Assembly (NCBI GenBank): GCA_964567435.1
Contig: CAZMMQ010000007.1
Coordinates: forward strand, 31,931-95,930
Length of the DNA: 64,000 nucleotides
Direction of reading: 5' to 3'
Source: an uncultured Saprospiraceae bacterium
Lineage (GTDB): Bacteria; Bacteroidota; Bacteroidia; Chitinophagales; Saprospiraceae
The translations under genes were made by a program, and so were the position numbers. Numbering within the stretch: the first letter of the stretch is position 1; the number at the start of each line of letters is the position of its first letter. Positions 9,609 to 52,956 of the stretch are shown piece by piece. The notes below the pieces were generated by a model that was given only the letters and a program-made list of their open reading frames with translations, ran no database searches and was not told the DNA's origin.

Positions 9609-9658
9609 ACTGAATATTATTTTCTAATCGCCAGAAAGATAGCAAAGTTGATCTTTGT

Positions 9659-14018: not shown

Positions 14019-14048
14019 CTAGCCAATTCCAATTATGTAAAAATTTAA

Positions 14049-14076
14049 AAAGGGTTCACCCGAAGGTAAACCCTTT
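14049..14076 (-). terminator. Hairpin between convergent cmk and giant gene A; likely intrinsic terminator for the minus-strand gene
   Basis: AAAGGGTT-CACC-CGAA-GGTA-AACCCTTT: an 8 bp plus 3 bp stem with one mismatch and a CGAA loop. On the minus strand it is followed by TTTTAAATTT. On the plus strand the trailing sequence is A-rich. Confidence 0.6.
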
Positions 14077-14112
14077 ATAAAAAGACATCAGTTAAACTTT
14101 ATGGTTATTGTC

Positions 14113-17100
14113 TTATCTAAACACGGTGATATCACCGGCTTCTATTTCTGGTCTTTCTAGTGGACCACCCTCGTCTATAACTAGATTAATCACATACACA
14201 TATACACCTTGCTCTACATTACCTGCAGCATCATTACCCCAGCGGCCTGTAAAGCCAAGATCCCATACTTGTCCTGTTGCATCAGTATCACTATCATCCA
14301 TTACATCCACTAAAGGATCTAATTCCTTGATATATACAAGTTCTCCCCATCTGTCATAGATTGCTACATCTCTTACGGTTACACTTCCTTGAGTGAACAT
14401 GGTCCATCTTGCATTCTCGGCGTCAGCTTGGGCAGAAATCACATTCGGGATATACCATCTTTCGAAATCAATGATTGTGATATCTCTGTCATCAGTTAAG
14501 AAACAGTTATCTGCAAAGAAGACCTGTACACCCAAAGTAAATTCTCTACCTAATTCTTCTAAATTAGCAACGATATCAATAATTGATTGCTCTTCAGAAT
14601 TGACCACAACTGGTACACCATCTATAAACCATATCACATCTGTAGGCTCTGCTGAAATACCTCCAAGCTCAAAAGTGAATGTACCATTCTCATCTACCAT
14701 CAGCGTCTCATCACCTACGATATTGACTTCTCCGACTGGAGCAGCTTCTACAGGAATGGATAGCATATCAGTACAACCATTAGCATCTCTGACAAGCATA
14801 TCATAGATACCAGGCCCTGGTATAGTGTATACAGGGTCAGCCTGCGATGGAGGATTATCTAACCACTCATAAGTATATGGCTCTGTACCACCTGTCGCTT
14901 CTATAGTAATAGTCGGTGCTACATCAAAAATACAATCAGCTGGATTCGCTGTAATACCAAGTATTCTAGGTCTCTCAAAGACTTCGAAATCATACATGGT
15001 CGTATAGACACAATCATCACCTGTTACAGTCGTATATGTCGCAGAGTAGGTAATATCTATTACTCCAGATGATAAGTCAGCTACTGCTACATTACCATTA
15101 GATGGATTAACAGCCGTACTGCTACTCATCCAAGCTTCTTCCAGATTACTGCCTGCAGGTGGTGTGCCTTGGAATATCTCACTTCCTGGTAAAGTAAAAT
15201 CACTAACATCTCCTTCACAGAAGTCTTGTAATGTTAAAGAAGATGGTATCAACTCTGGACAATCAGACGGTGTACATACTACTGTTGCACTCGGAGATGT
15301 CAGACACAGCTCTGGCCCAACAATATTAATCGGCGTCACCACAATAGTGACAGGATCTTGAGAGGTTAGGTTATCAGCTACGAAGGTCGTTTCCTGAGTT
15401 GTCTCTGTTGTTCTTCCAGGAATACTAATCTCATATCCTTCTGCACCTTCCAGTTCATTCCAGATAAAAGTCACTGAACTTATAGTCACAGAACCACATG
15501 ATACCATAAGAGTCTGTGATAGACCCACATTAAATGATACTTCTACTGGGTCACTTACACAATCTGATGCACTTTGCTGGGTCAATGAAATTGTTTTCAT
15601 ACCATCATCATCATATCTTACAACTACACCATCTGGGAAGTCTCCTCCTACGACTGTTCCACCATCATAATCAAGCATACTTGTCACTTGAGGGTCAACA
15701 ATTGCTGGTCCACTCACTGTGATTATGTCTCCTTGACAAATGTCATCAATGTCATTGATAGCAGCTGTAGGTCGGATATTAACTTGAATCTCTACAGTCT
15801 CCGAGAATACGCATTCAAGAGGGAAACTAGCATCTGCCCACTCAAAGTCTATCTCATATAGCGCACTAACCTCTTCGTCATCTGGTGTAAATAAGCCATT
15901 GGCGTCTACTCTACTATCCAACCATGTTATAGTACCTGGTAGAATAGCACCAGTCGCATCTAGCACCTCTCCTACCTCCAATTGTATTGGAGCAGCTCCA
16001 GCTTCCCAACATGCTTCTTGTTGTGGTACATCAAACTGAGGGACTATACAACTCGTCGCTATACAATCTTGTTCTTCAGACATTCCATTACCACAATCCA
16101 CATCTATATTAAGAGCCGTAATCGTAATATCGACCTCATCATCTTGACTTAGATTATCTATTGTTATCGTCGTTACCGATGGATCATTAATTGTATCTGG
16201 ATCAGCAGTATTACCGTTAATAGTTATGATGACTTCATACCCTGAGATATCAGAAACTTCTGTCCATTCGAATGTGACAAAATCAAGACTTGAATCTACA
16301 CAATTGATTGGAGACATATTTGGAACGCCAGGACAAGGTGCTGTACATAGTCTTGTCTCAGCAGGAAGTGTACATCCATCCTGAGGATGAATCGGCTGTA
16401 CCGATAATATGTAATCTTCCATAGGTCCAAGATTATTGACCGTGAATGACAACTGATCTGTTCTTTCTATAAAGATCGGATTAGCTGGATCAGTCACATT
16501 GACCAATTCAAATGAATCAATATTAGTGATGGCTTCCCACGCAAATATGATCATGCCTGGTGTCTCGTCGCAAGACTCAAATGTTACTCCTGCAAAAGTG
16601 AGACAGTTGCTCGCCATGCATGTTACTGAGTTGGACGCGTTACAGCTGCCACTAGCAAAATTGTCATTGATAGCCGTCACAGTAACAATCACCTCGTCGC
16701 CTTCATTTAATGTATTGTTTTCGTATTCTAATACGTCACTGGCATCATAAGCAAATGGAGATCCTGGTATGGCTGTGCCATTAATAGTAACAGCTACTGA
16801 ATAACTTGTCGCTCCAGCAACCTGATCCCATCCTGCAGTGATAAAGTCTAATCCCTGATCTATACAATTTGGATTAGGCGCTTCTAGCTCAGGGATGACA
16901 TCAACCATAAAGGTGGTCATATCTTCACAGCCTGCTACATTTGAAATTGCCTCTATTAGATAGCTTCCAGGCTCTGTGAATCTTATATCTCCATCTGCAT
17001 TAGCGACTGGATCATCAGTGGCTATATCATTAACATCATAATTCCATGATACAGAACCTTCTGGGGCATCCAAAAGTAACGATACATCATTGACACAGAC

Positions 17101-20100
17101 AGGCGTCTCAAACTCAAATGATGGATCTGGAACTTGTAATACCTCATATGATAGGTTAAATACTCTTTCTGGACACTGTGGATCAAAAGTATAGGTGACT
17201 TGGATATCATAGGTGCCCGGCGCTAATCCATCTGTATCAAACTCACCAGTGACAGGATCTACAAACCCTGCTGGTGTACTCTCAAAAGATAACATACCAT
17301 TAGGTTCAGAGAATGGAAATCCGTCTGCCAATGTCAATACACCAGGTGTATCATTCTGGCAGAAATCAGTCCCTTGTATTTCCTGAGTCACACTCGCTGG
17401 CGGACAATTAGAAGTCGTACATGGCACCGCTGTCGATGGCTCACTATTAAAGCAAGGCATGCCACCTAAAGCTGTTACCGTATATGTGACTGTTGTGCCT
17501 AAAGCTAAACCAGTCGTGGTATGACTAGTAACACTGTCATCATAATCCATAACTGCTGCGCCATCTTCAAATACAGTATACCCTGTCGCTCCAGGTATAG
17601 GTTCCCAAGTGATCTCCAGATCATTTTGACCTTGATTTCCACAAGTAACTTTCGGTGCTTCTAAAGGCTCTATCACCATGAAATTAGCTGGTAGTGACAC
17701 TCTAGAAGAACAACCAGAAAGTGTATCCTCTATACTGACGATCACTTGTTGCATTCCAGCACCAGGAAAATCATAAGTTGTAAAATTATCAAAGGTCTTT
17801 ATAGAGTTAGTCCCATTGACAAAGGTATACTCGTAGTTAGGACTTGGTGGATTAGCGGTAGCCGTCACCGTCACCGATGTCATCGCATTGGCGTCTGGTG
17901 CACCGATAATACAAATATCTGATATAGGATCTACGGCCACTGTTGGCGGATCTGTCAAGTTAACACAAACAAAGGCAGGATCTGATAGTCCACATACTGC
18001 ATCTGCAACCACAGATACACAATCATCCGGATCATAGCCTGATGGGAAAGTGATATCCACAACTGTACCATCTCCATTTGCAGACACATCTGTCACTACT
18101 ACACCTGGAATTATTGGGTTGTTATTCCAGATATAATCTGTATCTGGTGCAGCATTTGTTACCATAAATCTATGATCTTCCAAATCTGTCGCACAGAAAG
18201 TATCGTCACCTGCAACAATTGGTGGTGGTGGCATTGCCACTCCCCAAGCAAATGGACCATAAGTCGTGGTACATTGATCTATTCTTTCTTCATCATGGAA
18301 TGGACCATAAGTCCCTTCTCCTTCTTCTGAGTCCCACCAAGCTCCATCGACAAAATCAAAGGTGATACGGACACAGACATCCCTTGGCTGACTGAGCTGG
18401 ATGGTTCCAGTTGTATTACCCGGTGAAATATTTTCACCTGTATTACAATCAATAAATTCGACTACTTGGGAACTTTGAAATATCTCTCCCCACTCTTCGT
18501 ACTCATCATCCAAAAGATCAAAATCAATTCCCGCTGTATAAGCACCACAACCCAAATCCTCGGTTATGATTGGCACAGTACCAACTGTGATTGCTATGTT
18601 AGGTAAGGTATCACAATATTGATCTCTGCCTGGTCTCCATGTATCCATCTCATCACTATACCCTTCTATTCTTAGACATATAGCGGCATTAAGCGAATCT
18701 GGCGCTTCTAAGTCTCTTATCACATTATCTTGTCTCCAATCCCATTCCCACTCATACACTTGGTCATCGCAGTCCAAAGGATCATTGATTTCGCACTCCA
18801 TGAACTGGCATCTCCACATAAAAGCTTGCACATCTGTCTTGACTCTATTACCAACAGGTCTGATGCATAGTTCTTGAGGCACCTCACAATCGCAATCAGG
18901 ATCAAGGAAGGTAAACAGATTGCAGTTATATCCATCTGCATTCAATGGCCAAGAGTCTACATCTGCTAGGAAAACGGCATCCCCTAACCATTCTAATCCA
19001 TCCATATTTGGATCTTGGTCAGAATCTGCTGGATCAAAACCTGCAGGGTTCTCTGCTGGGTCCAAGGTTTCTATACATACATCGAACTGATAGGTCTCAG
19101 GTAGTATATTGACAACATGGACATCTAGGCAGACAGGTCCTGGCTTAGGGTCGCATTCGAATACTATTTCTTCAAGGCAAATTTGATGAAGACCTTCTGT
19201 ATCTGGTGCTTCTAGGGGAGGAATAAAGCCGCCACCATCTATTAGCGGATTCCATTCTATGTCACCCATCCAAGTTGTTGACCATCTAAATATGGTGTTT
19301 AAAGATTCTGCATATTGTCCACATTCATCCTGTAACTCAGGAATAGAACTAACAGGGTTACCTTGATGGATAACACCAAATTGGATCTCTTCACCTGGAC
19401 ATACAGTCACACTACTTGTTAGTTCGCAGTTACCAGTTGGACTTGGCAAAGAAGGATCATCGAAGTTATCTGTCAGCATCTCGTCTCTACAAGGACTAAA
19501 AGCTGTAATGGCATCTATTTCTGGTAAGCCAAGAAAATCTAATCCCTCAACGGTGACTGTATACAAACAATCATCTCCATTACAACCATCCACAAACATG
19601 TAATAAGTCTGACCAGGCACAAAATTACCTGAAGATAAGTTTTGTTGAGTAGTTGTACATCCACCTGTCCAGACGACACAGTCATCAAACTCACAACTAT
19701 CATAGATACCCAGCTGTACCCCTTGTCCAGTACTACACATGTCCAAGTCCACGATGATTTCTAATTCCTCAGCACTTGCTACAAAGGCAAACCACGACAT
19801 ATTATGTGGTACATTACCTCCATCACCACATAGTGGGGTCGGTTGTGAACCATCATTTATCGGCGCACATCCTGGGTTAATAAATTCACATTCTGGGTTA
19901 CATGAGGTATATCCTTCTTGTAGCTCCACTGGATCACATAATCGACAACCATTTGGAAATACAGGATCTGCATCTTCACAAGTCTCACAGAATATCGATC
20001 CTACATCTCCACAACTACCACATTGTAAGGTAAAGTCAAAGCAGTGCTCCAAATTACCAGAGGGATCACACATATCAGTAATAGTGATACATACCTGAGT

Positions 20101-22236
20101 TGTAGTTATTGAATTTGTAGCAAAATCAACAAGCATTGGTGGTGTCGGTTGATCAGCAAAGTCTGAAATTGCAGCAGAACATGGTAAGTGAGAATAAGTA
20201 ACCATCACATCACATCCACCTTCCCATACAATATCTTCTATAGCTTCCCACATCCATGTGTTCATATCATTATCCATCCATACACATGGATCAAAATCAT
20301 TGGTACATTGTGCATCTGGTAAGTTTAATGAAATATCTTCTGGATAGTGATCAGTAGGATCTCCTATCCAATCCAATGGCTGTATACCTCCACCTATATC
20401 TACAGTCCACTCTAGTCTATATACATCTCCATTACCACACTCATCAATCAAATTCCATTCTATAAATCCAACTTCTCCACAGAGATTAGGGTAAAATTCA
20501 TCCTGAACTGCAATATCTTGGATTGTCAATACTGAAAAGTCAGTACAGTTATCGGTTATGGCATTAATATTAATTTGGACCATAGCTGTGAAGTCATCTA
20601 TTGTCTCTATCTCATTAGGACAAAATGTACCTACATTCGTTCCATTTCCAGGGAATAAATCTGCTAATATTGGAGCCTGAGTATCATCTACATCTAGAGT
20701 CAACTGGTCAGTATTACTTAAGTTACCACAAGGATCTTCGTACTCTATACTAAAAGTAATTTCAAAGCAAGTATTCGTTCCAGGATCTAAATCATCCGCG
20801 GTGATACTTCCTGGATCTGGCGTGATTGTAAAATCACCAATACTTAACCCAGATAAATCTGTACAATCATCTGTCACAATTCCACCACCCGTAAGTATCG
20901 CATCTACCTCTGATTGAATAGCAGCCAAATTGCTACATTCTGGAGTAACACTTTGAGCGGCGCCCGACAAGTCTAATACAGGGGGTGTATTATCTACTAC
21001 CTCTACTTGACCAGTCCATGAGAATATATTACCACATAGATCCTCAATCTCAAAATCTATATCGTATGTATCAGCTACGCAGGTCGAGAAATCTAATGGT
21101 GTAGGATCGCCACCTACCAAGCTGATCACAAGGTCACCTGGTGCAGTACAAAGATCACTAAAATAATTAGCACCTCCACCGTTATTGAGTATATCTGTGA
21201 TGTACGCTTGGATATCGGCATCAGTGGTTACATTATCACAGGTAAATACCATCAAGCCTGGTGCGGCATTGTCGAAAGGATCTTGTGTATCTAAAATCTC
21301 ATAAGTAAAATCCTCATCAATGGTATTACCACAAGCATCCTCAGCAGTCGCCGTAATGGTGATAAGATTATTATCCACACAATCAGTAAAATCTATGGAT
21401 GGTAGAGGTGTTGCTGTAATTATTAGAGACGCCACATCAGTACAATCATCCATGAAGATGGAATTCTCATTTGGATCCAAATTATCTAAGATATCATCAT
21501 ACCATGTCTGTAACATAGACATAGACTGACCCATGTCACACTCATTACTGGTTGTACTAGGATCACTATCTACAAATGGATCTTCGGTATCTTCTACTTC
21601 GTAATCGAAGTCAAACGAAACCGAGTTGCCACATTCATCTTCAACATCAAAGGTTACTGTATACACTTGATTACCACATACAGTAAAGTCCACTACTGGT
21701 GGGTTAACTGCGGTGATGGTTAGTGCCGTTGGGTCAGCACAGTTATCATCGAAGACAAAATTACCGTTGAGAGAATTGGCTTCTATATCTGCGATCCAAT
21801 CATCAATATCGGCTTGCAGATTCATTGTACACTGCTCGCCAGATACATTGGCATCTTCTAAGGAACTGTCATCGTTGTGATCAAATGGATCCGTTGTATC
21901 ATCTGTATCTAGAAATACAGTGATCGTCACTATACTTCCATCGCAGTCCAAATCGACTTCCACCTCTACAACATCTGTCCCATTACAATCATAAGGGGGT
22001 GAAGTAACAATGTTATTAATCTGGTCATAGGTAATATTCCCATTACAGTCTCCAGTAGCTGAGGTCCATGAACTAGCTTGCAAAATAACCTCTATAGCAT
22101 CCATGAAGTCATCCGCATCGAGGTTATTACACTCCACGGTACCAACAGTAGTATTATCCTGGTCTATAGTCTGGGCGGTAAGAAAATTAGAAGTTAAAAG
22201 AAAGATTGTAAGCGGTAAAAATAGCTTTTTGATCAT
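14113..22236 (-). CDS. Giant secreted modular protein A (2707 aa) with T9SS type B (CHU_C/gliding-motility-associated) C-terminal domain
   Basis: Signal peptide MIKKLFLPLTIFLLTSNFLTAQ. Five HYR-like modules end in ..D.CGN...[VL].D[TN]..P. The Cys-rich centre includes a PPC-like module (NMSWFAF...GVQLGIYDSC...TYYMFVDGCNGDDC). FN3-like modules are present (ITWEPIPGATGYTV, AGWDQVAGATSYSV). There is one SprB-like repeat (ATGGTEPYTYEWL...LVRDANGCTD). CTD: RWYIPNV...IYDRWGELVY...QGVYVYVI...GDITVFR. Confidence 0.85.
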   Translation of the reverse strand: MIKKLFLPLTIFLLTSNFLTAQTIDQDNTTVGTVECNNLDADDFMDAIEVILQASSWTSATGDCNGNITYDQINNIVTSPPYDCNGTDVVEVEVDLDCDGSIVTITVFLDTDDTTDPFDHNDDSSLEDANVSGEQCTMNLQADIDDWIADIEANSLNGNFVFDDNCADPTALTITAVNPPVVDFTVCGNQVYTVTFDVEDECGNSVSFDFDYEVEDTEDPFVDSDPSTTSNECDMGQSMSMLQTWYDDILDNLDPNENSIFMDDCTDVASLIITATPLPSIDFTDCVDNNLITITATAEDACGNTIDEDFTYEILDTQDPFDNAAPGLMVFTCDNVTTDADIQAYITDILNNGGGANYFSDLCTAPGDLVISLVGGDPTPLDFSTCVADTYDIDFEIEDLCGNIFSWTGQVEVVDNTPPVLDLSGAAQSVTPECSNLAAIQSEVDAILTGGGIVTDDCTDLSGLSIGDFTITPDPGSITADDLDPGTNTCFEITFSIEYEDPCGNLSNTDQLTLDVDDTQAPILADLFPGNGTNVGTFCPNEIETIDDFTAMVQININAITDNCTDFSVLTIQDIAVQDEFYPNLCGEVGFIEWNLIDECGNGDVYRLEWTVDIGGGIQPLDWIGDPTDHYPEDISLNLPDAQCTNDFDPCVWMDNDMNTWMWEAIEDIVWEGGCDVMVTYSHLPCSAAISDFADQPTPPMLVDFATNSITTTQVCITITDMCDPSGNLEHCFDFTLQCGSCGDVGSIFCETCEDADPVFPNGCRLCDPVELQEGYTSCNPECEFINPGCAPINDGSQPTPLCGDGGNVPHNMSWFAFVASAEELEIIVDLDMCSTGQGVQLGIYDSCEFDDCVVWTGGCTTTQQNLSSGNFVPGQTYYMFVDGCNGDDCLYTVTVEGLDFLGLPEIDAITAFSPCRDEMLTDNFDDPSLPSPTGNCELTSSVTVCPGEEIQFGVIHQGNPVSSIPELQDECGQYAESLNTIFRWSTTWMGDIEWNPLIDGGGFIPPLEAPDTEGLHQICLEEIVFECDPKPGPVCLDVHVVNILPETYQFDVCIETLDPAENPAGFDPADSDQDPNMDGLEWLGDAVFLADVDSWPLNADGYNCNLFTFLDPDCDCEVPQELCIRPVGNRVKTDVQAFMWRCQFMECEINDPLDCDDQVYEWEWDWRQDNVIRDLEAPDSLNAAICLRIEGYSDEMDTWRPGRDQYCDTLPNIAITVGTVPIITEDLGCGAYTAGIDFDLLDDEYEEWGEIFQSSQVVEFIDCNTGENISPGNTTGTIQLSQPRDVCVRITFDFVDGAWWDSEEGEGTYGPFHDEERIDQCTTTYGPFAWGVAMPPPPIVAGDDTFCATDLEDHRFMVTNAAPDTDYIWNNNPIIPGVVVTDVSANGDGTVVDITFPSGYDPDDCVSVVADAVCGLSDPAFVCVNLTDPPTVAVDPISDICIIGAPDANAMTSVTVTATANPPSPNYEYTFVNGTNSIKTFDNFTTYDFPGAGMQQVIVSIEDTLSGCSSRVSLPANFMVIEPLEAPKVTCGNQGQNDLEITWEPIPGATGYTVFEDGAAVMDYDDSVTSHTTTGLALGTTVTYTVTALGGMPCFNSEPSTAVPCTTSNCPPASVTQEIQGTDFCQNDTPGVLTLADGFPFSEPNGMLSFESTPAGFVDPVTGEFDTDGLAPGTYDIQVTYTFDPQCPERVFNLSYEVLQVPDPSFEFETPVCVNDVSLLLDAPEGSVSWNYDVNDIATDDPVANADGDIRFTEPGSYLIEAISNVAGCEDMTTFMVDVIPELEAPNPNCIDQGLDFITAGWDQVAGATSYSVAVTINGTAIPGSPFAYDASDVLEYENNTLNEGDEVIVTVTAINDNFASGSCNASNSVTCMASNCLTFAGVTFESCDETPGMIIFAWEAITNIDSFELVNVTDPANPIFIERTDQLSFTVNNLGPMEDYILSVQPIHPQDGCTLPAETRLCTAPCPGVPNMSPINCVDSSLDFVTFEWTEVSDISGYEVIITINGNTADPDTINDPSVTTITIDNLSQDDEVDITITALNIDVDCGNGMSEEQDCIATSCIVPQFDVPQQEACWEAGAAPIQLEVGEVLDATGAILPGTITWLDSRVDANGLFTPDDEEVSALYEIDFEWADASFPLECVFSETVEIQVNIRPTAAINDIDDICQGDIITVSGPAIVDPQVTSMLDYDGGTVVGGDFPDGVVVRYDDDGMKTISLTQQSASDCVSDPVEVSFNVGLSQTLMVSCGSVTISSVTFIWNELEGAEGYEISIPGRTTETTQETTFVADNLTSQDPVTIVVTPINIVGPELCLTSPSATVVCTPSDCPELIPSSLTLQDFCEGDVSDFTLPGSEIFQGTPPAGSNLEEAWMSSSTAVNPSNGNVAVADLSSGVIDITYSATYTTVTGDDCVYTTMYDFEVFERPRILGITANPADCIFDVAPTITIEATGGTEPYTYEWLDNPPSQADPVYTIPGPGIYDMLVRDANGCTDMLSIPVEAAPVGEVNIVGDETLMVDENGTFTFELGGISAEPTDVIWFIDGVPVVVNSEEQSIIDIVANLEELGREFTLGVQVFFADNCFLTDDRDITIIDFERWYIPNVISAQADAENARWTMFTQGSVTVRDVAIYDRWGELVYIKELDPLVDVMDDSDTDATGQVWDLGFTGRWGNDAAGNVEQGVYVYVINLVIDEGGPLERPEIEAGDITVFR
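20400..21850 (-). repeat. Five tandem ~100-aa HYR-like modules in protein A
   Basis: Module ends recur: VTFDVEDECGNSVSFDFDYEVEDTEDPF / ITATAEDACGNTIDEDFTYEILDTQDPF / DFEIEDLCGNIFSWTGQVEVVDNTPPVL / SIEYEDPCGNLSNTDQLTLDVDDTQAPIL / NLIDECGNGDVYRLEWTV. Boundaries are approximate. Confidence 0.6.
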
Positions 22237-22394
22237 AACTGATGTTTGTCTCTTAATAACAATAGTTCTGTGGTTCGAATCTGCTTTGGACGCTACTATA
22301 ATACTATAGTTTGCGGACTATCAAGAACAAACAACCACTTACTGTCTGACAAAAGCCATCAGTTGTAATGAAAAAGGGTGGACTGTCAATTTTT

Positions 22395-22424
22395 CGATAG
22401 ACAACAGTCATTAGTTGTCTATCG
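22395..22424. other. Perfect 11-bp inverted repeat (stem-loop) between giant genes B and A
   Basis: CGATAGACAAC-AGTCATTA-GTTGTCTATCG. No T-tract follows on either strand. Confidence 0.5.
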
Positions 22425-22450
22425 GCTAGGTTCTAAAAATAAGTCACATA

Positions 22451-27544: not shown

Positions 27545-27850
27545 CGATATAATATATACTGTGACACGATATACTGTTGCAACCTGTTAAGATTATCAGT
27601 ATTGGTGTCGGTTGTAATTAAATCCAAAGAATTAGGCTTACAATCAGGCCTAAAATCTCTTAATTATGCTCTTAAATTTTTTTTGGGTGTTTCTGACTTA
27701 GGAATGGTTAGTCATTGTATGCCATTTTTACATGATTGTAAAGTCGACTTGTTGACAAACCAGTATATAATCAGAAAATACTCTAACCTAAAATCAAGGT
27801 AGGTCAGATGATAGATATGACAAATGTTTTACAAAAATACAACCAATTTA

Positions 27851-30800: not shown

Positions 30801-30916
30801 ATTATAAGATCCATATCAGATTGCGGAGATATAGTTACAGGACTGGATAGGAAGCACTGCCCTATCATCGCTGAAGGAAGTATAAAGAATAATATGGCTA
30901 TGATCTTGTCCGTCAT
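27851..30916 (-). CDS. Secreted modular protein C (1021 aa): orphan proprotein-convertase P-domain-like N-terminus, Ig-like modules, T9SS type B CTD
   Basis: Signal peptide MTDKIIAILFFILPSAMIGQ. P-domain-like segment INIEWEHGRQENLRFELISPSGQVVPLI...GDWRLNIVNQGTNSGVLIFIEIFF. Cys-bounded Ig-like modules: VTVTDINLCTAS, FMLTDRNGCSG, VTLIDGNGCRLD, ILEITDVNGCQAID. CTD: IYIPTIFQP...LYDRWGNLV...WDGRFGNKPAEQGVYVYMA...GHITLLR. Confidence 0.85.
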   Translation of the reverse strand: MTDKIIAILFFILPSAMIGQCFLSSPVTISPQSDMDLIINVSGLSPDDLAGDQGICAINIEWEHGRQENLRFELISPSGQVVPLIGPGIINGALSPRVNWNINFVECDLPTSPDPGIEPIWNNNQRWEFLTNYTGTYHPHSGCLEDFNIGSANGDWRLNIVNQGTNSGVLIFIEIFFCEGIASCFQCLVDAGNFSTPQIIFCEGADQLSQLDSMSVFGTLPTMGTEVRYLVDDGTGTISVLQSWEAIQALPEGPLDIQVVTTTDENLPTVDAITTLTDLQAILDMSLCLDVSDNNLAIRYIDAIHIEDMEVALCEGDTLIIDNNIFTEAIDTTFFPSSAMMCDTLIQLEIEVVRLDAIISNNGNPVVCGQRQFLDGSQSIASLQTQFEWTTNDGNITNGLGSVATVDAGGTYFLELNDRGCSDMDSIVLNAVDTFFLFLEQDPPLCFGDSLNISLRDSFDVTVGPISLSIADINGPPGSVVDQIGNLINVSDPGLYTIEIMAGSCIREDTITVVDNTQEINISASVADTLGCNGTPVVIDLTTNVADPTFSWDGPEMLPDGNTNPSVMIAGVYTVTVTDINLCTASTSIEVFSEVTQPMIDIPDLIIPCGSSISLEATITGSVDSITWVSPEGLVLPGDNPMVSDTGIYFLSVFERQGCDLLDIPVSVTSDGIPLFQSEENVLIPCGPGSLLITNDDPNILDPTNTIAWRDSMGQIISQDPNLRITEQGTYTFMLTDRNGCSGTRTFIALLESEQSIIQQIDISTQPGSCLSLDSTAIKLTGPFSDLSQILFNNEDLGLSSDYLLANGLYDVTLIDGNGCRLDTMLQLENDALPPSLNLGPDVTLESGESFPIPISLSGLDDELTLSWSDPNLVSCTQCLDPTIQLTQDTLLILEITDVNGCQAIDSLLIMIIDDMSPPTASENNSIYIPTIFQPTLPAPDNQLVMGIDSNKYTAFSFYLYDRWGNLVTQSDGPVDNNEILLWDGRFGNKPAEQGVYVYMAKLLQVDGLEDVNSGHITLLR

Positions 30917-31045
30917 ATATAGATCGGCCTAATTGTCCAAAACAATAAAACGGCAATAAGGCTTGAGATGTTTCTCCATTAAGTAATTAGATTCTTCAGC
31001 TGATCTACTCAAGAATATGCAACTCAATCACTTTCATATACTTAA

Positions 31046-31089
31046 TAAAAATAAAAATTGGCAGCAACTCTGGTATTGAGCTGCTGCCA
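31046..31089 (-). terminator. Rho-independent terminator downstream of giant gene D
   Basis: Minus strand reads TGGCAGCAGCTC-AATACCA-GAGTTGCTGCCA, a 12-bp stem with one mismatch. It is followed directly by AATTTTTATTTTTATT. Confidence 0.65.
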
Positions 31090-31125
31090 TGTATCATTGG
31101 TTAACTTAAGGCAAGTTCAATTAAT

Positions 31126-34100
31126 CTATCTTAAAAGAGTAATGTCACCTGCAAAGATGTCAGTCTCTGGCATACCATCAAAGGCGCTATATCTTACTTT
31201 GATAAAATAGACATATACGCCTTGATTGAGCAAGCCACCTGTATTACCCCATCTACCGTTCCAGCCTACAGAAGGATCATTTGGTAGGACTTCCGTCGGA
31301 ATAGAGTAGACAAGTTGACCCCATCTATCGTAGATACGCATTTCTTCTACCGCTTCCACAAATCTGTCGGTTTGTACAAAGAATGTTTGATCGGCTGTAT
31401 TATCTGCACTTGTACTGAATACTGTCGGTATAAAAACATCTCTGACTAATTGTTCTCTTAGTATAACACAGTCTGTTGCTTCACAACCATCAGCATTGAC
31501 TATAGTGACACAATATTCATTAAAAATTTCAGGATCTACTTCTATTTGACCACAGAGAGAAAGTGGGCCTGAACAAAGTTCTTCTCCAGAATCAGCATCT
31601 ACCCAAGTTACAGATACTATCGTCGCTGGATCTATGTTTGCAGATATTGCTGCATTGAGGATATAAAGTGAATCTCCTAGTTCTACTTCTCTGTCTTCTC
31701 CAGAATCTACATCCAGCACTTCTGGTTCTGGTATCACAAAATCAAGCATGATCTCACACCCATTATCATCTGTAACAACAATTGTGTGAGGACCTGTAGG
31801 CAGATTTCCAAACATATCAGACTCTTGAAATTCTCCTCCATCCAAGGAGAATAAAACAACACCTGCACCATTAGTTGTGGTCACGACTGCTTGACCAAAA
31901 TCACTAGGACAGTTTGGTTCTGAGATATCTACTCCAGCAGTCAATCCTCCATCGGAAGTCACTACAACCATATCCTGAGCAGTACACCCATCTATATCAG
32001 TGACGACAAGTGTATATGTTCCTGCTTGACTGACCATAATCACAGGTTGGTCATCTACAGTCAGAGATCCCCCATCAGTTGCTGTCCATTGGTAGTTAAA
32101 GTCTCCACCCACTGAGGTACCTGATCCTCCTAATTCTACACTTGCATTGCATGTAATGACACCACCATCTCCCGCATCTGCTACTGGATTAAACAGCAGA
32201 TTGACTGTTACAACTTCTTCATCTGCAGGGCATGACCCCGCTTCAGGAGCCGTATACATAAATTCGTAGACACCACTTCTTTGACCTAATGTATTAAAGG
32301 TTCCAGCTATATCATCAAAACCTGTTTGGTTAGGGTTTGTACTCGCCTCTGTCCATACACCACCTAGAGATGCACCACTCAACTGTCCAAATAAATCAAC
32401 TACAACTTCTTCTCCAGAACACAATTCTACCGGCGTCGCTGTACCTGCAGACTGAGGTATAGATATCTCTACCGAAACCATCCCAAGATCACATAACGGA
32501 TCGAACACACCAGAAGGCGTAAATAAGAGGTCGATGATGCCATCTAAATCTCCAGTTTCCAATATCTCATTTTGTAAGTCTATGCTTGTACCTCCCTGCG
32601 ATGCAGTCCAAGTACCATCTGATGTCAGCCCACCTTCTAGTGTTGTCAAATCCAATGATTCTCCTTGACAAAGAGGGTCTGGAGATGCTATATCCACATT
32701 TGGACAACTACAATCTCTCACTACGATTGTAGATCTTTCGATAACCGGATCACATAAGCCATTATCATCTTCAGCAGTGAATGTAAAGCTGTACGAAGTG
32801 TTGAGAGGGAGGCCATCAAAACATATATTGGTTATATCACTATCATCACCTCCATCGGCTAGGTAAAAAGGATCTACTGTCCATGTTCCTGTTCCTCCAG
32901 AAATGGTTACAAAATCGTTCAAATTGATACAATGCGAACCATCGTTCTGAACGACGTTACATGGACTAATGAGGGCTTCCACTGATACGTCAACTGCTTG
33001 AATAACGTTAATGACTATATTAAGATTTCGCACTGTACAACCCATTGGCACATTATCCAATCTATACTGATACTCATATGGCCCTGTCACATAATTGGTG
33101 AGGTTAACCATTGATCCATTAAGATTAGGCGGAGACGAACCAGATACGATGAACCACTCTCCATCAGGAAGGCTACCAATATTTGTGATAAATTGGTCTA
33201 AGTCGATATTGCCATCTGTGTTGCAGAAGTCATCGGGAGTTGTAAACAAGAACATTGGGCATCCGCAGGCTCTGACATCTATCGCCAACGGTATGTCTAC
33301 CTGTTCGCATGGTGTTAAGGCATTATCCGTAGTAAATACAACTTCGTAAACATCTGGTGGTACGCCAGTAAAGTCTATAACATTCTCGTTGTCATCAAAG
33401 ACTCCAGGAAATGATGCACTTACAGACCAATCACCAGATCCGCTCGCCAACAAAGTATCAAGATCTACCATAAATGGAAGGTTATCCATTTCTTCTGCAT
33501 TACAGACACTAATCGATGCTGTTGTCAAACTTACCTCTGGCTCATCGTTAATGGTTATGTCCTGTGAGACTGTATTTATCAAATCACATCCTGTAATTGG
33601 CGTAATCAGTGAATAGCTTACGGTATATGTACCTGGAGGCAGGCCATCTGATTCAAATCGATCTCCAATAAGTGAACTAGTAGGTACTGGCATACCACTA
33701 GGATCATTAACTGACCATTGGCCCTGTTCTCCTCCAGGATTAACTAGAAATCCATTCAAATTAATAGTCGTTCCTGTAATACAAAGATCATCTAAAGGCA
33801 TAATAGATATATCCGGACAGTTACAATCTATTACACGTATTGTCGTCATTAATTGTAATGGCATGCAAAGAGAACCAGCTTCCACGTCTAACGTATACTC
33901 ATATATGTAATCTCCTAAATCAATACCAGCAAAATCAACCATGGTGCCATTGACAGCAGGTCCTGCTCCACTATGAGACCAGGTTCCAGAATTATCTCCA
34001 GCAGTAATTAGTGTATTCAAGTCTAATCCGGTAGGCTCACCAGTTGCATTCGAATTACATCGACTAACAGAATTTTGATCCAATTCTGCAAATGGTTGTC

Positions 34101-37100
34101 GGAAAACCTCAAAAGTAACCGGCATTGATTGCGAAGCACAAGGTGAAGGCGGTGCTGTATCTAAGATATATATCAAAGTAAAAAGGCCTTCTCCTGTAGA
34201 TGCTGTAACTAAAATCTCATCATCAGAAAAATCTATTTCTCCTGCTCTATCTATTATCCATCGACCTGGTTCTGTTGTAAATTGAATTTGAGTCAAGTCA
34301 AAAGCCATATTATTATCTGATGCACAATAATCCGATATGCTACCTACGGCCACACTAGGGCAACCGCAGTTATTGACAATGAGTTGAAATGGAACTGTTT
34401 CGTTAGGACACGGATCTGTAGCATTTGTTGTGACAAATGAAAAATCATAGGTCCCAGCAGGTAGTCCAACGACGGAAAAGTCATTAGAATTCGCACTGAT
34501 ATTATTGTCGTTATTATCTCTCCAGAATCCTTGGATACCAGAATCCACCAGAGCATCAAGATTAATACTCGTAGGGTCAGTTCCTCCACTATCATTGCAG
34601 AGTGTTGCTGATACATCGGTTAAGACATTAGGCAATCTGCTAATTTCTACAACTTCTACAGTGGTAGCACCAGTACATCCTGAAATATCTGTGACCGTAA
34701 GGGAATAAATTCCTGGCACAGAAACATCTATAGTCTGACCTCCACCTGATATCTGCATGTCATTAGGATCTCTCCACAAATACATATCAAAGGCACCAGC
34801 ACTTATGGTAGTCATATCACCTTCGCAGAAACTAGGTGCAGTAGCCACTGGTGTTAATTCTGAGGCAGGTGACACTTCAAAGTTCGCAGAATTCATACAA
34901 TTATTTGCGTCCGTCACATTGACTGTATAAGTAGTCGGTGTTGTTGGTGATACTGTAATGCTTTGAGACATTGAGCCATCCGACCAATCAAAATCAAATG
35001 GGCTCATTCCTCCTGTGATATTGGCTATAAGATCAGTAGTCCCACCATTGCAGACAGTACTTGATCCTGATACATCTACCTCAGGGATAGAATTGACCAC
35101 AACCTCATGTGATTCAATTACCTCACAACCATTAAAGTCAGTACCTACAAAGGTGTATGTCGTACTAGAAGAGGGTGTATCTGTAATAATTGCAGACGTA
35201 AAAGTCATGGTACCAGCAGTCCACACAAAACTCGTAAATGCTGTTGGATTATTGAGTGTCAAAGTAACTGTCTGGCCAGCACATAAACTTGGTGGAGATA
35301 CGAACACATCTGGTGTAGGCTGAGGAGGAAGAATTAGAGGGACGGAAGACATACAGCCTCCTACAGAAGCGCCTCTTAATTCGAATAAACCACTGAAGTC
35401 TGAGACAGTGACACCAAGAGAATCTGTTTGGAGCGGCCCGATTAAGGTATCTATGATATTCGGATTAACTGTTGTGTCTATCTGTACGATATGCATGTTT
35501 GTCGCCATGACATTCGCATTTGTATTTTGTCCAATAAGGGAAATCTCATTGCCATTACATTGACCAGAAGTCAAAGTAAGTGCTGGGCCATTATCTACTA
35601 AAATTTGAAATGTAGTATCATACACACATGACAATTCATCAGTGACAATCACAGACATGTTATAGGCACCAGGCGTAGACAACTCATCCATAACGACGAT
35701 GCAAGTATCTCCATCCTGTACGTCAAAATCCAATCCTACAGGAGGATCTACTATCCATTCGTAGTCCAATTGGAAAACTGGTGTCTCATGTCGGACGCAA
35801 TATTCCGGATTGTCAGGTCCATCTCCTATGCATACACTAGGTGGTCCTGCAATATCTAAATTAAGCTGTTGCGAGGTTTCATATCGAAAATCCAGATCTA
35901 AGGTACATCCATTATCATCGGTTACAATAACTGATACCCTCTGCTCTCCTGGTGGTAAAAATTGTTCGTGAGGTAAATTAATACACTCAGTTGTCGCTCC
36001 AGTGTCCCACTGATAAGTGTATGGTGGTGTACCACACATATTCTCTGTACCTAATTTTAAATTTTCGCCAGGGCAAAATAATTCGCCAATATCTTGATTA
36101 AAATTAATTTCTAATTCTGGAAAGACAGTAACCACTACTTCAATCGAAGGGCCTCTACAACCGGTTTCAGCGTCCAACGCATAAATTTCATAGATGGCGT
36201 CTTGAATGGAACATGAGGTATTTTCAAGGTCGTCTTCTATAAACCCAAAATCTCCTATACTTCCTTCAGTCATTCCATCTATTTCCGTACTACTATCTTC
36301 TGATATGCTGACCATTATCTCTGCATCACGACCATCGCATATTTCTAACGGTATACTCAGCATATCTCCTGAGCATATCTGTAACTCTACTTCATCACAG
36401 ACCTCAGGTAAGCCATCACATGCTACTTCATAATTTTCTATGGCCGGTGCATCTTCACTACAGGCATTATTGACCCAACAACCTGTCATTCCATCTGCCA
36501 TTGTAAATATATGCACCTTCATATACTCAGGATCCATGCATTGATTTAAATCTATATCATCTCTAACCTGTAAGAAAAATGTAATTTCAAATGTCATAAC
36601 AGAACCACAGCCTTGCGGTATTCCCCACTGAGTATTTGGGTTACCTGTATTAGCACATCCAGCGCCACCATCTGAGATGGAATACCAACCTTGAGGAATA
36701 GCATTTCCTATTTGTAATGGTTGTCCACCATCAAAAACAAGTTCATTTCCTCCATGAGGACTAGGTTGTAAGCCTAACCGTGCACTATTGACTTGAGAGT
36801 CTACTTCTCCTTCAGCAAAATATTCCCAGCCTCCTGCTGGTGTTTGTGATTCAATACTGCAAGCATCCAAATCCCAACCTGGGCCAAGAGAAGGAATTAT
36901 CCCTTGCAACCACTGACAATTATTACCCATACCAAGCGGATCAGAAGTAAAGGATACAATATAGTCAAACTGAACTTTTTCTCCAGCACAGAAAGGCCCT
37001 TCAGGTGGGCCATCATTACTTGGTCTTGAAGACACAAGTGTTCCCACAGCACATTGTGCAGAAGCCACACTTGTGGACACGCAAAACTCAAAATTTCCAG

Positions 37101-38886
37101 GGACACCTGATCCTGACGCATTTGATACTTCTATAAAATACTCCACATTACCATTAACAGCTAAGGTAAACTCATCTCCTGGTGTACAACCAAGTAAGAC
37201 ACCTTGCTGACCTGTACCTGAACAGTCGCCTTGTAAAACTTGAACGACAGGCTCAAAACTTCCACCACCATCTACTGTGATGGTCATTTCAGAGGCATCT
37301 ACATCTGTAAAAACTGAAAACCAAAAACCTTGTTCTCCACAATCGCTATCGCAGAAATAGAGATTACAAGTATTGGCACATTCGTCACCGCCTCCAGTGG
37401 TAGGGCTCAAAGCCATAGCGTCATCGCAGTTCTCATGTTCGACTGGGCATAGTTGCATATCAACCAAAGCCATTAACTCAATCTCTCCGCAATCAGCAAC
37501 ATCAGACATCACTCGGACAAATCTTTGACCTGATCCACAGGTAGGGAAAGCCTGATCTGTAAAATCTCCAGTAGCACTGAATAATAAGGTAGAGCAGTCA
37601 CTATCGAAGACATCAATTTGCAATGATGGCCCTATAGAAATATTAGTTGCTGATAGCAATCTAGCACCACCTTCTTCACTTAACACATACCAAATCTCAC
37701 CATTTGGAGAGCAGCAGTTCGTATATATTTCAGGTGAAGGAACAAGATCTTCTGTCGCATCATTACAAGTTGTATTATCAGGAAGTGGTGGTGTTTCCAC
37801 AGTAAAAGAGCCACTATTGTCCATCAGTACCCAGTATGATTCTGTAGCATCCGCTGTTATTGTCAGTGGACTATCATTGCAATCTCCCAGAGAAGATAAG
37901 CTCGTGCAATCTGCACCTATAAAAAGTTCGAAATCTCCAGTTATGGTAAACTGAGGGAGTGAAGCATCAGTATTAAAAGTATACCAGATACCTGGTACTC
38001 CATCCATACAATCACCAGGTGTTGCCTCACTGTCAGGACAAGCATCACCGGCAGGATTCCCATTCTCAATGTCACCACAAGCAAGAGTACCTGAGCCTAG
38101 TGCCAATGCGTTGGAGCACACATCTTCTGGTGGCCCTGTCATCATTTGCGTCTCTTCGATATCGAATGTCCCAGGCAAATCACTTGATACTTCAACTAAA
38201 TAGTCTCCTGCGGCTAGACAAGTCGCTTCGACAACATCATTACAAGCACCAGACGTAGATACTTCCAGACCTCCACAGGCGTCATAGATATTAATTTCTG
38301 GATTGGATATAGTCCCCCCTGTAATCTCGACTATTAGCGTAGTTCCATCAGAACCAACGCTAACTTCATACCACACAGAATGGTCCCCACCGCAAGATCC
38401 TGTTGGCGCAGAAGCACAACCATTATTCTGACCACTAAGTGTACCACTAAGAGGGTCTCCAGGGCAATCTTCGTTAGAAGGAGCTGTAAAAGGATTCAAG
38501 TCAAAAGACTCCCCGTCTTCTACAGCAATGAAATAGATTAAATTAGGATCAATAAGCCAATTGATTACACCACCACACTCGATTTCTGATAATGAATTAC
38601 AGTCAGTACCTTCAAATAGGACAGCAGTACCACCACCGTCAAACTCAAACATTAAAACATCTGAAGTAAATTGGTAGGAGAACCATACTACGTCTGCACC
38701 ACTAAGGCAGCCAGTTAATTCCGGATCGGGAATTCCATCTCCTGCAACACCAGTCTCATTAATACTAGATGAGCAATCTTCTACCATCGTATTGGCTTCT
38801 GCATCTGCGCAGGTTAATTCTTGTCCTATTAGTGGAGTATTAAGCAGTAGAAAAGTTCCAATAATTAGAGTGTAAAATACTTTCAT
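31126..38886 (-). CDS. Giant secreted modular protein D (2586 aa) with T9SS type B C-terminal domain
   Basis: Signal peptide MKVFYTLIIGTFLLLNTPLIGQ. Five N-terminal Cys-framed modules with [VI]W[YF] cores. Central Ig-like modules. About 11 modules of 90-100 aa, in which alternate modules end in a C-x-C-P motif. SprB-like repeats (GGDFNYQWTATDGG...LVVTDIDGCTA, TTNGAGVVLFSLDGG...IVVTDDNGCEI). CTD: VFIPTVFST...IYDRWGQLVY...WNGRWGN...QGVYVYFI...GDITLLR. Confidence 0.85.
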   Translation of the reverse strand: MKVFYTLIIGTFLLLNTPLIGQELTCADAEANTMVEDCSSSINETGVAGDGIPDPELTGCLSGADVVWFSYQFTSDVLMFEFDGGGTAVLFEGTDCNSLSEIECGGVINWLIDPNLIYFIAVEDGESFDLNPFTAPSNEDCPGDPLSGTLSGQNNGCASAPTGSCGGDHSVWYEVSVGSDGTTLIVEITGGTISNPEINIYDACGGLEVSTSGACNDVVEATCLAAGDYLVEVSSDLPGTFDIEETQMMTGPPEDVCSNALALGSGTLACGDIENGNPAGDACPDSEATPGDCMDGVPGIWYTFNTDASLPQFTITGDFELFIGADCTSLSSLGDCNDSPLTITADATESYWVLMDNSGSFTVETPPLPDNTTCNDATEDLVPSPEIYTNCCSPNGEIWYVLSEEGGARLLSATNISIGPSLQIDVFDSDCSTLLFSATGDFTDQAFPTCGSGQRFVRVMSDVADCGEIELMALVDMQLCPVEHENCDDAMALSPTTGGGDECANTCNLYFCDSDCGEQGFWFSVFTDVDASEMTITVDGGGSFEPVVQVLQGDCSGTGQQGVLLGCTPGDEFTLAVNGNVEYFIEVSNASGSGVPGNFEFCVSTSVASAQCAVGTLVSSRPSNDGPPEGPFCAGEKVQFDYIVSFTSDPLGMGNNCQWLQGIIPSLGPGWDLDACSIESQTPAGGWEYFAEGEVDSQVNSARLGLQPSPHGGNELVFDGGQPLQIGNAIPQGWYSISDGGAGCANTGNPNTQWGIPQGCGSVMTFEITFFLQVRDDIDLNQCMDPEYMKVHIFTMADGMTGCWVNNACSEDAPAIENYEVACDGLPEVCDEVELQICSGDMLSIPLEICDGRDAEIMVSISEDSSTEIDGMTEGSIGDFGFIEDDLENTSCSIQDAIYEIYALDAETGCRGPSIEVVVTVFPELEINFNQDIGELFCPGENLKLGTENMCGTPPYTYQWDTGATTECINLPHEQFLPPGEQRVSVIVTDDNGCTLDLDFRYETSQQLNLDIAGPPSVCIGDGPDNPEYCVRHETPVFQLDYEWIVDPPVGLDFDVQDGDTCIVVMDELSTPGAYNMSVIVTDELSCVYDTTFQILVDNGPALTLTSGQCNGNEISLIGQNTNANVMATNMHIVQIDTTVNPNIIDTLIGPLQTDSLGVTVSDFSGLFELRGASVGGCMSSVPLILPPQPTPDVFVSPPSLCAGQTVTLTLNNPTAFTSFVWTAGTMTFTSAIITDTPSSSTTYTFVGTDFNGCEVIESHEVVVNSIPEVDVSGSSTVCNGGTTDLIANITGGMSPFDFDWSDGSMSQSITVSPTTPTTYTVNVTDANNCMNSANFEVSPASELTPVATAPSFCEGDMTTISAGAFDMYLWRDPNDMQISGGGQTIDVSVPGIYSLTVTDISGCTGATTVEVVEISRLPNVLTDVSATLCNDSGGTDPTSINLDALVDSGIQGFWRDNNDNNISANSNDFSVVGLPAGTYDFSFVTTNATDPCPNETVPFQLIVNNCGCPSVAVGSISDYCASDNNMAFDLTQIQFTTEPGRWIIDRAGEIDFSDDEILVTASTGEGLFTLIYILDTAPPSPCASQSMPVTFEVFRQPFAELDQNSVSRCNSNATGEPTGLDLNTLITAGDNSGTWSHSGAGPAVNGTMVDFAGIDLGDYIYEYTLDVEAGSLCMPLQLMTTIRVIDCNCPDISIMPLDDLCITGTTINLNGFLVNPGGEQGQWSVNDPSGMPVPTSSLIGDRFESDGLPPGTYTVSYSLITPITGCDLINTVSQDITINDEPEVSLTTASISVCNAEEMDNLPFMVDLDTLLASGSGDWSVSASFPGVFDDNENVIDFTGVPPDVYEVVFTTDNALTPCEQVDIPLAIDVRACGCPMFLFTTPDDFCNTDGNIDLDQFITNIGSLPDGEWFIVSGSSPPNLNGSMVNLTNYVTGPYEYQYRLDNVPMGCTVRNLNIVINVIQAVDVSVEALISPCNVVQNDGSHCINLNDFVTISGGTGTWTVDPFYLADGGDDSDITNICFDGLPLNTSYSFTFTAEDDNGLCDPVIERSTIVVRDCSCPNVDIASPDPLCQGESLDLTTLEGGLTSDGTWTASQGGTSIDLQNEILETGDLDGIIDLLFTPSGVFDPLCDLGMVSVEISIPQSAGTATPVELCSGEEVVVDLFGQLSGASLGGVWTEASTNPNQTGFDDIAGTFNTLGQRSGVYEFMYTAPEAGSCPADEEVVTVNLLFNPVADAGDGGVITCNASVELGGSGTSVGGDFNYQWTATDGGSLTVDDQPVIMVSQAGTYTLVVTDIDGCTAQDMVVVTSDGGLTAGVDISEPNCPSDFGQAVVTTTNGAGVVLFSLDGGEFQESDMFGNLPTGPHTIVVTDDNGCEIMLDFVIPEPEVLDVDSGEDREVELGDSLYILNAAISANIDPATIVSVTWVDADSGEELCSGPLSLCGQIEVDPEIFNEYCVTIVNADGCEATDCVILREQLVRDVFIPTVFSTSADNTADQTFFVQTDRFVEAVEEMRIYDRWGQLVYSIPTEVLPNDPSVGWNGRWGNTGGLLNQGVYVYFIKVRYSAFDGMPETDIFAGDITLLR
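32185..34605 (-). repeat. Tandem ~90-100 aa modules organised as ~180-190 aa di-modules in protein D
   Basis: The pattern C..(D/N)....(L/I)(D/N)L..L......G.W...........F.G(L/V)P.G.Y.(F/Y).(F/Y).......C recurs. Every second module ends in NNCGCPS / IDCNCPD / RACGCPM / RDCSCPN. Spacing between these motifs counts to 181 and 186 aa. Confidence 0.7.
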
Positions 38887-49701: not shown

Positions 49702-49718
49702 TATAGTTAGTCTTTATA

Positions 49719-52947: not shown

Positions 52948-52956
52948 TATTACACT

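Follow-up and report, generated by a model that had tools for sequence, protein, structure and literature searches.

What could four giant genes, lying head to tail on one strand, contribute to the life of an uncultured member of the Saprospiraceae? We asked this of a locus on contig CAZMMQ010000007.1 of assembly GCA_964567435.1, within a 64-kb stretch that we call the window and to which all coordinates refer unless another locus is named. Saprospiraceae are abundant on marine particles, algae and wastewater flocs and are mostly uncultured, and to our knowledge little is known of how they attach to surfaces or prey. Giant immunoglobulin (Ig)-repeat cargos of type IX secretion systems (T9SS) are common in Bacteroidota genomes, and the array represents no novel type of system. 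What is noteworthy about it is its deep conservation as a four-gene set of orphan cargos, the divergent subtype of its C-terminal domains (CTDs), and an uncurated domain that we term the hub. We found no prior description of this four-gene array in the literature. Our analysis suggests, with a probability of about 0.6, that its products, named A, B, C and D by position along the window, are T9SS-exported, outer-membrane-anchored fibrillar adhesins that carry four different lectin-like heads.

The four genes and their C-terminal domains

A first-pass annotation, made from the letters and translated reading frames alone, had described four consecutive minus-strand open reading frames (ORFs). Their coordinates, strand and lengths proved exact, and together they encode 8011 amino acids over 24,774 bp, or 38.7% of the window:

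14113..22236, minus strand: gene A, 2707 amino acids; signal peptide, HYR_4C-like repeats, a Cys-rich region dark to Pfam, fn3-containing tri-modules, an SprB-like repeat and a type B CTD
22451..27544, minus strand: gene B, 1697 amino acids; signal peptide, PKD-like modules, three full tri-modules of ~257 amino acids with partial copies, and a type B CTD
27851..30916, minus strand: gene C, 1021 amino acids; signal peptide, an N-terminal P-domain-like jelly roll, Ig-like modules and a type B CTD
31126..38886, minus strand: gene D, 2586 amino acids; signal peptide, five galactose-binding-domain (GBD) modules, the hub domain, PKD_5, Ig_7, Pfam-dark Ig-like modules linked by 'DCxCP', PKD and a type B CTD

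ORFs this long cannot be a product of chance at ~40% GC, and full-length relatives of each exist elsewhere. Every one of the four opens with an ATG start and, read by eye, an n-region that is short and basic, then 12-15 hydrophobic residues and a c-region of small residues, as had been claimed of their signal peptides. Because each ORF has its own signal peptide, its own CTD and intact, full-length orthologues, the four are separate genes, and the idea that they are decayed pieces of a single gene was ruled out. Recent duplication or gene conversion was ruled out as well: the paralogues are 20-27% identical at the protein level and no long DNA repeats common to A-D were found, so that they are not simple duplicates of one another. 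A BLAST self-comparison returned no internal repeats, which surfaced only with profile methods.

The assignment of type B CTDs was borne out in part. All four proteins retain the hallmarks IP[NT], [YF]DRWG, W[DN]G, QGVY.Y and G.[IV]T[LVI][FL]R. When ~300-amino-acid chunks were scored against Pfam CHU_C (PF13585, gathering cutoff 27 bits), A, C and D passed (31.5, 28.7 and 36.9 bits) and B fell just short (26.0 bits, E 1e-5); whole proteins gave 25.9, 22.8, 27.0 and 34.4 bits for A, B, C and D. The second family check that had been proposed, NCBIfam TIGR04131 (cutoff 35 bits), failed for the whole array, with 22.4 bits for C and no match at E<=0.01 for A, B or D. The model does work in this genome, since another cargo of the window, the fifth (57131-60835), exceeds its cutoff with 36.5 bits. 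The alignment accounts for the weak family scores: near the N-terminus of the domain, canonical type B CTDs carry a 'SPNGDGxND' block that is degenerate in A-D, and the domain of A is further marked by an acidic insertion of ~20 amino acids. The two CTDs singled out in this comparison are:

14116..14451, minus strand: type B CTD of A, CHU_C 31.5 bits, with the acidic insertion
31129..31431, minus strand: type B CTD of D, CHU_C 36.9 bits, column identity 0.54 among orthologues

Set against the five CTD motifs, A to E, of PMC12618676, four blocks and the terminal G.[IV]T..R are kept and 'SPNGDGxND' is degenerate, although the mapping onto those letters is our own inference. Over their last 100 amino acids the four CTDs are 34-53% identical in pairs, and each is nearest to its own orthologues, B's CTD for example being 93%, 72% and 58% identical across genomes. 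The CTDs of A-D therefore look like a divergent type B subtype without the usual 'SPNGDGxND' block. Relatives are annotated by their sources as gliding-motility-associated proteins or as proteins with a T9SS type B sorting domain. The motifs, and Pfam in the case of A, C and D, support placing the array proteins in the type B cargo class; TIGR04131 does not.

Proposed heads and stalks, and the hub domain

Only binding or structural families were matched in A-D, namely fn3, PKD, PKD_4, PKD_5, PKD_6, Ig_7, SprB, P_proprotein and GBD_T9SS_assoc. As the first-pass annotation had stated, no enzyme or catalytic family was found, either in Pfam and NCBIfam searches of whole proteins and chunks or in PDB sequence searches; A and D matched none of the PDB chains at E<=0.01 (phmmer, all chains). 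The modules on which our interpretation turns are the following:

37063..38823, minus strand: D residues 22-608, five galactose-binding-domain-like modules (family profile, E from 5e-9 to 2e-35)
36367..37089, minus strand: D residues 600-840, the β-rich hub domain (GNNCQWLQGIIP..GWD ... FTMADGMTGCW), without a Pfam model
32197..34629, minus strand: D residues ~1420-2230, Cys-bounded Ig-like modules of ~95 amino acids in series, the repeat pattern being read from the sequence
19081..22236, minus strand: A residues 1-1052, the 'head' of A, a portable module 36-54% identical to residues 1-850 of the protein P0088
20287..21981, minus strand: A residues ~86-650, some six repeats, framed by Cys and akin to HYR_4C (PF23237), which align in register with those of the protein P0092
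23750..26062, minus strand: B residues 495-1265, three tandem tri-modules, each an fn3-like and two β modules (profile, 416-420 bits per copy)

The N-terminus of D had been credited with five modules built on a [VI]W[YF] core, and the family profile recovered all five; a single such module claimed for A was not recovered. For the modules described earlier as PPC-like, PF23759 GBD_T9SS_assoc is the better name. The five D modules correspond to this family and match both it (17.8 bits) and the PPC jelly roll PF04151 (15.6 bits) weakly, below cutoff. PF23759 reaches 30.5 bits in the relative P0007, and relatives with 11-16 module copies exceed its cutoff.

Behind these modules lies the hub, a real, uncurated domain family that the earlier reader had missed. 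Each of 21 homologues has a single copy, following the GBD modules in every case; A, B and C have none. It had no Pfam match at E<=0.1, and its profile matched none of the PDB sequences. Hub and CTD are the best-conserved parts of D, the hub being the most conserved of all, with a mean pairwise column identity of 0.56 in the orthologue alignment against 0.42 for the whole protein. An AlphaFold2 model built from a 20-sequence alignment is β-rich (predicted local distance difference test score, pLDDT, 86; predicted template-modelling score, pTM, 0.83), and its remote Foldseek neighbours are adhesin or pilin sandwiches. The hub was also considered as an enzyme, a known lectin or a phage receptor-binding fold, and each was rejected for want of a significant sequence or fold match in PDB or BFVD. 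Its conserved Trp, Asp and Asn residues might conceivably suit sugar binding or oligomerisation. The family is sizeable, with 731 cluster representatives at E<=1e-3 and 238 at E<=1e-30 among 1.84 billion, and merits a profile and a structure of its own. Further along D, the Ig-like run matched no Pfam family at E<=0.1 in two chunks.

Residues 1-1345 of A are without any Pfam match. The HYR-like modules proposed there likewise have no direct one, and their support is transitive: P0092, which has seven HYR_4C domains (185 bits), aligns with the A repeats at a pairwise E of 2e-18. The head of A recurs in P0088, which is encoded in the same metagenome-assembled genome (MAG) as the related locus L007 and, beyond the head region, carries metal-binding MopE motifs together with fn3 and a CTD of type A (Por_Secre_tail). 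Since this head also occurs on a protein with a type A CTD, it is a separable functional unit, which would support a division of labour between a head that provides function and a stalk and CTD that provide delivery. At locus L030 (MAG GCA_964591455.1), P0088 (8001-12332) adjoins the gene at 12845-16318, and both products carry a type A CTD with MopE copper-binding motifs.

Other matches in A are fn3 (26-31 bits) and SprB (PF13573, 26.4 bits). Of the SprB-like modules annotated earlier, this stretch and one in D (18.8 bits) are what we could find, and both lie under the 28-bit Pfam cutoff. The tri-module earlier described as common to A and B, on the other hand, is supported: the B profile reaches 60 bits on A, whereas 200 shuffled versions of A give no more than 4 bits, and it has no match in C or D. 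Its copy number ranges from three to four among orthologues and so varies the length of the B stalk. PKD_6 and PKD_4 match B weakly, and the N-terminus of C just reaches the P_proprotein cutoff (21.9 vs 21 bits).

In composition, the four proteins are acidic and Cys-rich, as first described, with 13.7-17.9% Asp plus Glu, 1.6-3.1% Lys plus Arg and 2.5-4.0% Cys. Housekeeping proteins of the same window have 9-16% Lys plus Arg and at most 2% Cys, so the bias belongs to A-D and not to the proteome, and a halophile-type acidic proteome was ruled out. Relatives are likewise depleted in Lys and Arg (0.3-3%), some of them without any acidity, and avoidance of these residues is a trait of the protein class that is not special to this array. 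Two D-related giant T9SS cargos, P0028 and P0029, are nearly uncharged (~1% Asp plus Glu, 0.3-0.5% Lys plus Arg); the comparison suggests that the trait under common selection is Lys/Arg avoidance and not acidity. In A-D, the strong scarcity of Lys and Arg together with the excess of Asp and Glu would make a polyanionic fibre resistant to trypsin-like proteases. A and D contain fewer copies of the Bacteroidota O-glycosylation motif D[ST][AILVMT] than their shuffles (6 observed vs 18.7±4.3 for A, 7 vs 15.4±3.7 for D), whereas C (14 vs 6.1±2.2) and the fifth cargo at 57131-60835 (19 vs 5.0±2.0) are enriched in it.

Inheritance, proposed anchoring and competing readings

The first-pass annotation regarded the four proteins as mosaics drawn from a shared pool of modules. 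Instead of a shuffled repertoire, we found a deeply conserved, syntenic four-gene set. The window matches a Joint Genome Institute (JGI) metagenome contig (sample 3300002923), and all genome matches to the array are uncultured Saprospiraceae or Lewinellaceae MAGs. The order D-C-B-A is kept, with intact ORFs, in at least nine Saprospiraceae MAGs, over which the identity of D falls from 85 to 32% (74% at L007, 49% at L003 and L008, 40-41% at L010, 39% at L005, 36% at L012, 33% at L009, L013 and L004, and 32% at L022). Upstream of the array the conserved flank comprises PnuC, AAA_28, a TonB-dependent receptor and s204, a divergently transcribed gene of ~200 amino acids. Orthologues of A hold the same array position in L007, L009, L010 and L012, and orthologues of B were found in nine loci. 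The length of D is nearly fixed (2445-2590 amino acids); that of B varies from 1443 to 2159 amino acids, partly through the three or four copies of its tri-module. The synteny comparison suggested earlier returned a fixed gene order. An extra D-like paralogue lies between s204 and D in four lineages:

7544-13572 of L012: extra D-like paralogue
5009-13729 of L013: extra D-like paralogue
5261-13441 of L022: extra D-like paralogue
987-9695 of L004: extra D-like paralogue

In L012 this extra gene consists of two ORFs and in L004 of three, a fragmentation suggestive of frameshifting, gene decay or misassembly. The most distant relatives of D (27-28%) are lone genes in other contexts and have no PorP-like neighbour. 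The cargos diverge much faster than their neighbours, D at L005 being 39% identical and Der 80%. Overall, the locus is old and vertically inherited, with each gene forming its own orthologue group, and the array would be passed on as a fixed set of four genes (five in some lineages), each member kept under selection.

The genes are separated by spacers of 209, 306 and 214 bp at 31-36% GC, in agreement with the AT-rich spacers of 200-300 bp first noted. From these, and from a terminator after D, the genes had been taken to be separate transcription units. The terminator is indeed a strong hairpin with a T-tract, and a second one closes the array:

31059..31089, minus strand: terminator-like hairpin after D, 12-bp stem with 7 GC pairs, then a T-tract
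14049..14076, minus strand: terminator-like hairpin after A, at the array end, 12-bp stem, then a T-tract

Separate transcription is only partly supported, because strong terminators follow D and A alone and none comparable was found after C or B. An 11-bp perfect hairpin (CGATAGACAAC...GTTGTCTATCG; 22395-22424, minus strand) lies ~25 nt past the B stop; we did not call it a terminator because an A-run, not a T-run, comes next. The Bacteroidota -7 promoter motif TAnnTTTG gave one poorly placed, uninformative match in the spacers, and a sigma-70 scan returned 61 sites where 62.5 are expected by chance. A phase-variable invertible promoter upstream of D was rejected, as no flanking inverted repeats were found there.

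How would such proteins reach the surface and stay there? The literature describes type B cargos as adhesins, known or predicted, with PorP/SprF as the anchor (PMC12618676, PMC9143113), and they remain surface-bound on PorP-like, 14-stranded barrels of the FadL family (PMC9143113). By analogy, each of A-D would be exported by Sec through its signal peptide, and in the periplasm disulfides would staple its β-sandwich modules. Its divergent CTD would then be recognised at the T9SS translocon and handed over to an outer-membrane shuttle of the PorP/SprF family encoded elsewhere in the genome. With the C-terminus remaining bound to the shuttle, the N-terminus would project outward. The C-terminal two thirds, made of fn3, PKD, Ig-like and SprB-like modules, would serve as the stalk, and the four N-terminal heads as tips that bind ligands, most probably glycans carried by particles, algae or prey: five galactose-binding-like modules and the hub in D, a P-domain jelly roll in C, PKD-like modules in B, and HYR_4C-like repeats with a Cys-rich region in A. 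The core of the first-pass annotation, four separate type B cargos built of binding or structural β-sandwich modules, with no enzyme and most plausibly acting as surface fibrils or adhesins, agrees with this picture.

Several observations weigh against it. B scores just under the CHU_C cutoff, none of the four array proteins reaches that of TIGR04131, and the 'SPNGDGxND' block is degenerate; all five CTD motifs are required for SprB secretion in F. johnsoniae (PMC12618676). PorP/SprF (PF11751) was found in none of the 45 scanned window ORFs of at least 100 amino acids (the ORF at 55042-56028 lay outside the scan), and A is followed by its terminator and then cmk, with no porP/sprF-like gene directly 3', so that A-D are 'orphan' cargos. 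T9SS core genes were not found in the 64-kb window either, and the presence of the system in the host is deduced solely from taxonomy. Ligand binding by the heads draws on weak family matches (GBD 17.8 bits, P-domain 21.9 bits), and the hub has no significant fold match in PDB or BFVD (Foldseek; best E 6e-3, template-modelling score at most 0.35). Finally, synteny extends to the flanking housekeeping genes. General collinearity may therefore account in part for the conserved order, which is by itself no proof that A-D act together.

Orphan cargos do have precedents. Of the 12 type B cargos in F. johnsoniae, 9 come with a gene for their cognate shuttle directly downstream, and the other three (Fjoh_1123, Fjoh_1720, Fjoh_4934) have one orphan SprF-like shuttle, Fjoh_1677, in common (PMC12618676). 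These are among the closest analogues of A-D: they combine a Sec signal with a type B CTD, are predicted adhesins, have no porP/sprF directly downstream and need a shuttle from elsewhere. In contrast to them, A-D stand in one conserved tandem array, are far larger (1021-2707 amino acids), and have CTDs without the canonical SPNGDGxND-type block that score near or below family cutoffs. SprB of F. johnsoniae (6497 amino acids), working with SprF, has its C-terminus anchored to a PorP-family barrel and its N-terminus distal; A-D differ from it in lacking adjacent sprF, sprC and sprD, in having different head domains and at most one sub-threshold SprB repeat per protein, and in being less than half its size. 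The grappling hook GhpA of Aureispira, a heptamer of a 5898-amino-acid protein (10.1101/2024.01.29.577165), comes from the same class, Saprospiria, and is likewise a T9SS cargo with disulfide-stabilised Ig-like repeats and a distal N-terminal functional tip. It is, however, a single gene with PorP (ghpB) and PorE (ghpC) directly downstream, which the array does not have, and A and D match no solved structure by sequence, although PDB should include GhpA fragments. A-D are not orthologues of SprB or GhpA. With the array, the recent idea of the orphan type B cargo, described in a single model Flavobacterium, reaches a tandem arrangement in a different class. The array also provides four concrete candidates for attachment fibres, conserved as a set, whose differing heads could be expressed for glycan-array tests.

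Two competing readings keep the proteins on the surface. [quoted passage not shown] This is compatible with anchored adhesins and, although unlikely, deserves some weight. The type B CTDs and the weak SprB-repeat matches in A and D fit it, as does the lack of an adjacent PorE-like gene, which correlates with mobile cargos in F. johnsoniae (PMC12618676, PMC9143113). The CTD of the orphan cargo Fjoh_1123 can direct helical movement (PMC12618676), and gliding is documented in Aureispira (10.1101/2024.01.29.577165). SprB-type proteins, however, carry many SprB repeats where A and D have one sub-threshold match each (26.4 and 18.8 bits vs 28), the sprC/sprD/sprF operon context is missing and the CTDs are divergent; sequence cannot by itself tell a mobile cargo from a static one. 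It seems doubtful that A-D are instead subunits of one composite appendage, co-assembling for example as parallel protomers like the GhpA heptamer, though from unlike subunits. The four-gene order kept over deep divergence, the fixed length of D, the single strand with short spacers and strong terminators only after D and A, and the stalk tri-modules common to A and B all speak for it, and GhpA is a T9SS cargo that oligomerises into a rigid fibre (10.1101/2024.01.29.577165). Yet the lengths differ 2.6-fold, from 1021 to 2707 amino acids, and B and C vary between genomes, a poor fit to packing in register; a fifth, D-like gene is present in some lineages, distant D relatives stand alone (L016, L017 and L019), and with equally syntenic housekeeping neighbours the order is weak evidence. 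A bolder version is similarly doubtful: D-C-B-A might be a fixed multi-component surface organelle of an uncultured Saprospiraceae clade, in which cargos with degenerate CTDs share one dedicated orphan shuttle, form a composite appendage, and use the hub as a new oligomerisation or glycan-binding fold to organise an N-terminal multi-lectin 'claw'.

Many Saprospiraceae are filamentous or sheathed, and the four proteins might be released as a polyanionic, Ca2+-binding extracellular matrix, sheath or coat, for which their extreme acidity with very low Lys and Arg, the degenerate CTD motif block and the lack of a local shuttle or anchor gene could be cited. We consider this highly improbable: those type B cargos that have been characterised are held at the surface by PorP-like proteins (PMC9143113), a head-plus-stalk build with distinct conserved heads suits adhesins better, and Lys/Arg depletion extends across the class, including the nearly uncharged P0028 and P0029. 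Hardly credible is the view that A-D are ordinary secreted enzymes or toxins. About 1345 amino acids of A and ~1000 of D have no Pfam match and could in principle hide catalytic domains, but these dark regions read as Cys-framed β repeats (HYR_4C-like, or Ig-like modules linked by 'DCxCP'), the hub is β-rich with adhesin or pilin sandwiches as its only remote fold neighbours, and no hydrolase or toxin family appeared in Pfam, NCBIfam or PDB.

Neighbouring genes and other features of the window

The gene next to D, conserved together with the array, encodes a small barrel:

39317..39931, plus strand: s204, a small outer-membrane β-barrel of eight strands, divergent from D (AlphaFold2 model, pLDDT 82)

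It adjoins D (or D') in eight syntenic loci, always with the TonB-dependent receptor on one side and the first cargo gene on the other, and only 17 relatives were found. The best fold matches are the OmpA transmembrane domain, OprF-N, Ail and OmpX. The protein has a disordered linker rich in Arg, Ser and Asp after its signal peptide, no Cys, and no Pfam match at E<=1. A role as a miniature shuttle of the PorP/SprF type was ruled out, its OmpA-like barrel having eight strands and the shuttle 14, and a role as a PorG-like, disulfide-linked partner (PMC12635249) was ruled out by the absence of Cys. The model points to an OmpA/OmpX-like barrel beside the array, which we report purely as genomic context.

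No RNA genes were found in the window by Rfam and tRNA scans. The fifth cargo (57131-60835, minus strand, 1234 amino acids) has a canonical type B CTD (CHU_C 51 bits, TIGR04131 36.5 bits) and is divergent from a gene at 61261-63801 (plus strand) that encodes a protein of 846 amino acids, poor in Lys and Arg and rich in Cys. The N-termini of the two are nearly alike (NxWYxGxRAxxxFNTxPP..LNTQE); the 846-amino-acid protein has a Lys-rich tail, no CTD motifs, and no Pfam or NCBIfam match. Between the array and this pair, 46828-56926 is a sugar-nucleotide and nonulosonic-acid cluster, with genes for a dTDP-sugar isomerase, two NeuB, two CMP-sugar cytidylyltransferases, a UDP-GlcNAc 2-epimerase, a UDP-sugar dehydrogenase and a polysaccharide pyruvyl transferase. 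Beyond about 52 kb and up to the window end, GC content is lower, ~32-34% instead of ~38%. On the other side, 1.4 kb past the array end and beyond cmk, a PAS-rich hybrid histidine kinase (1027 amino acids) and a response regulator occupy 8646-12742.

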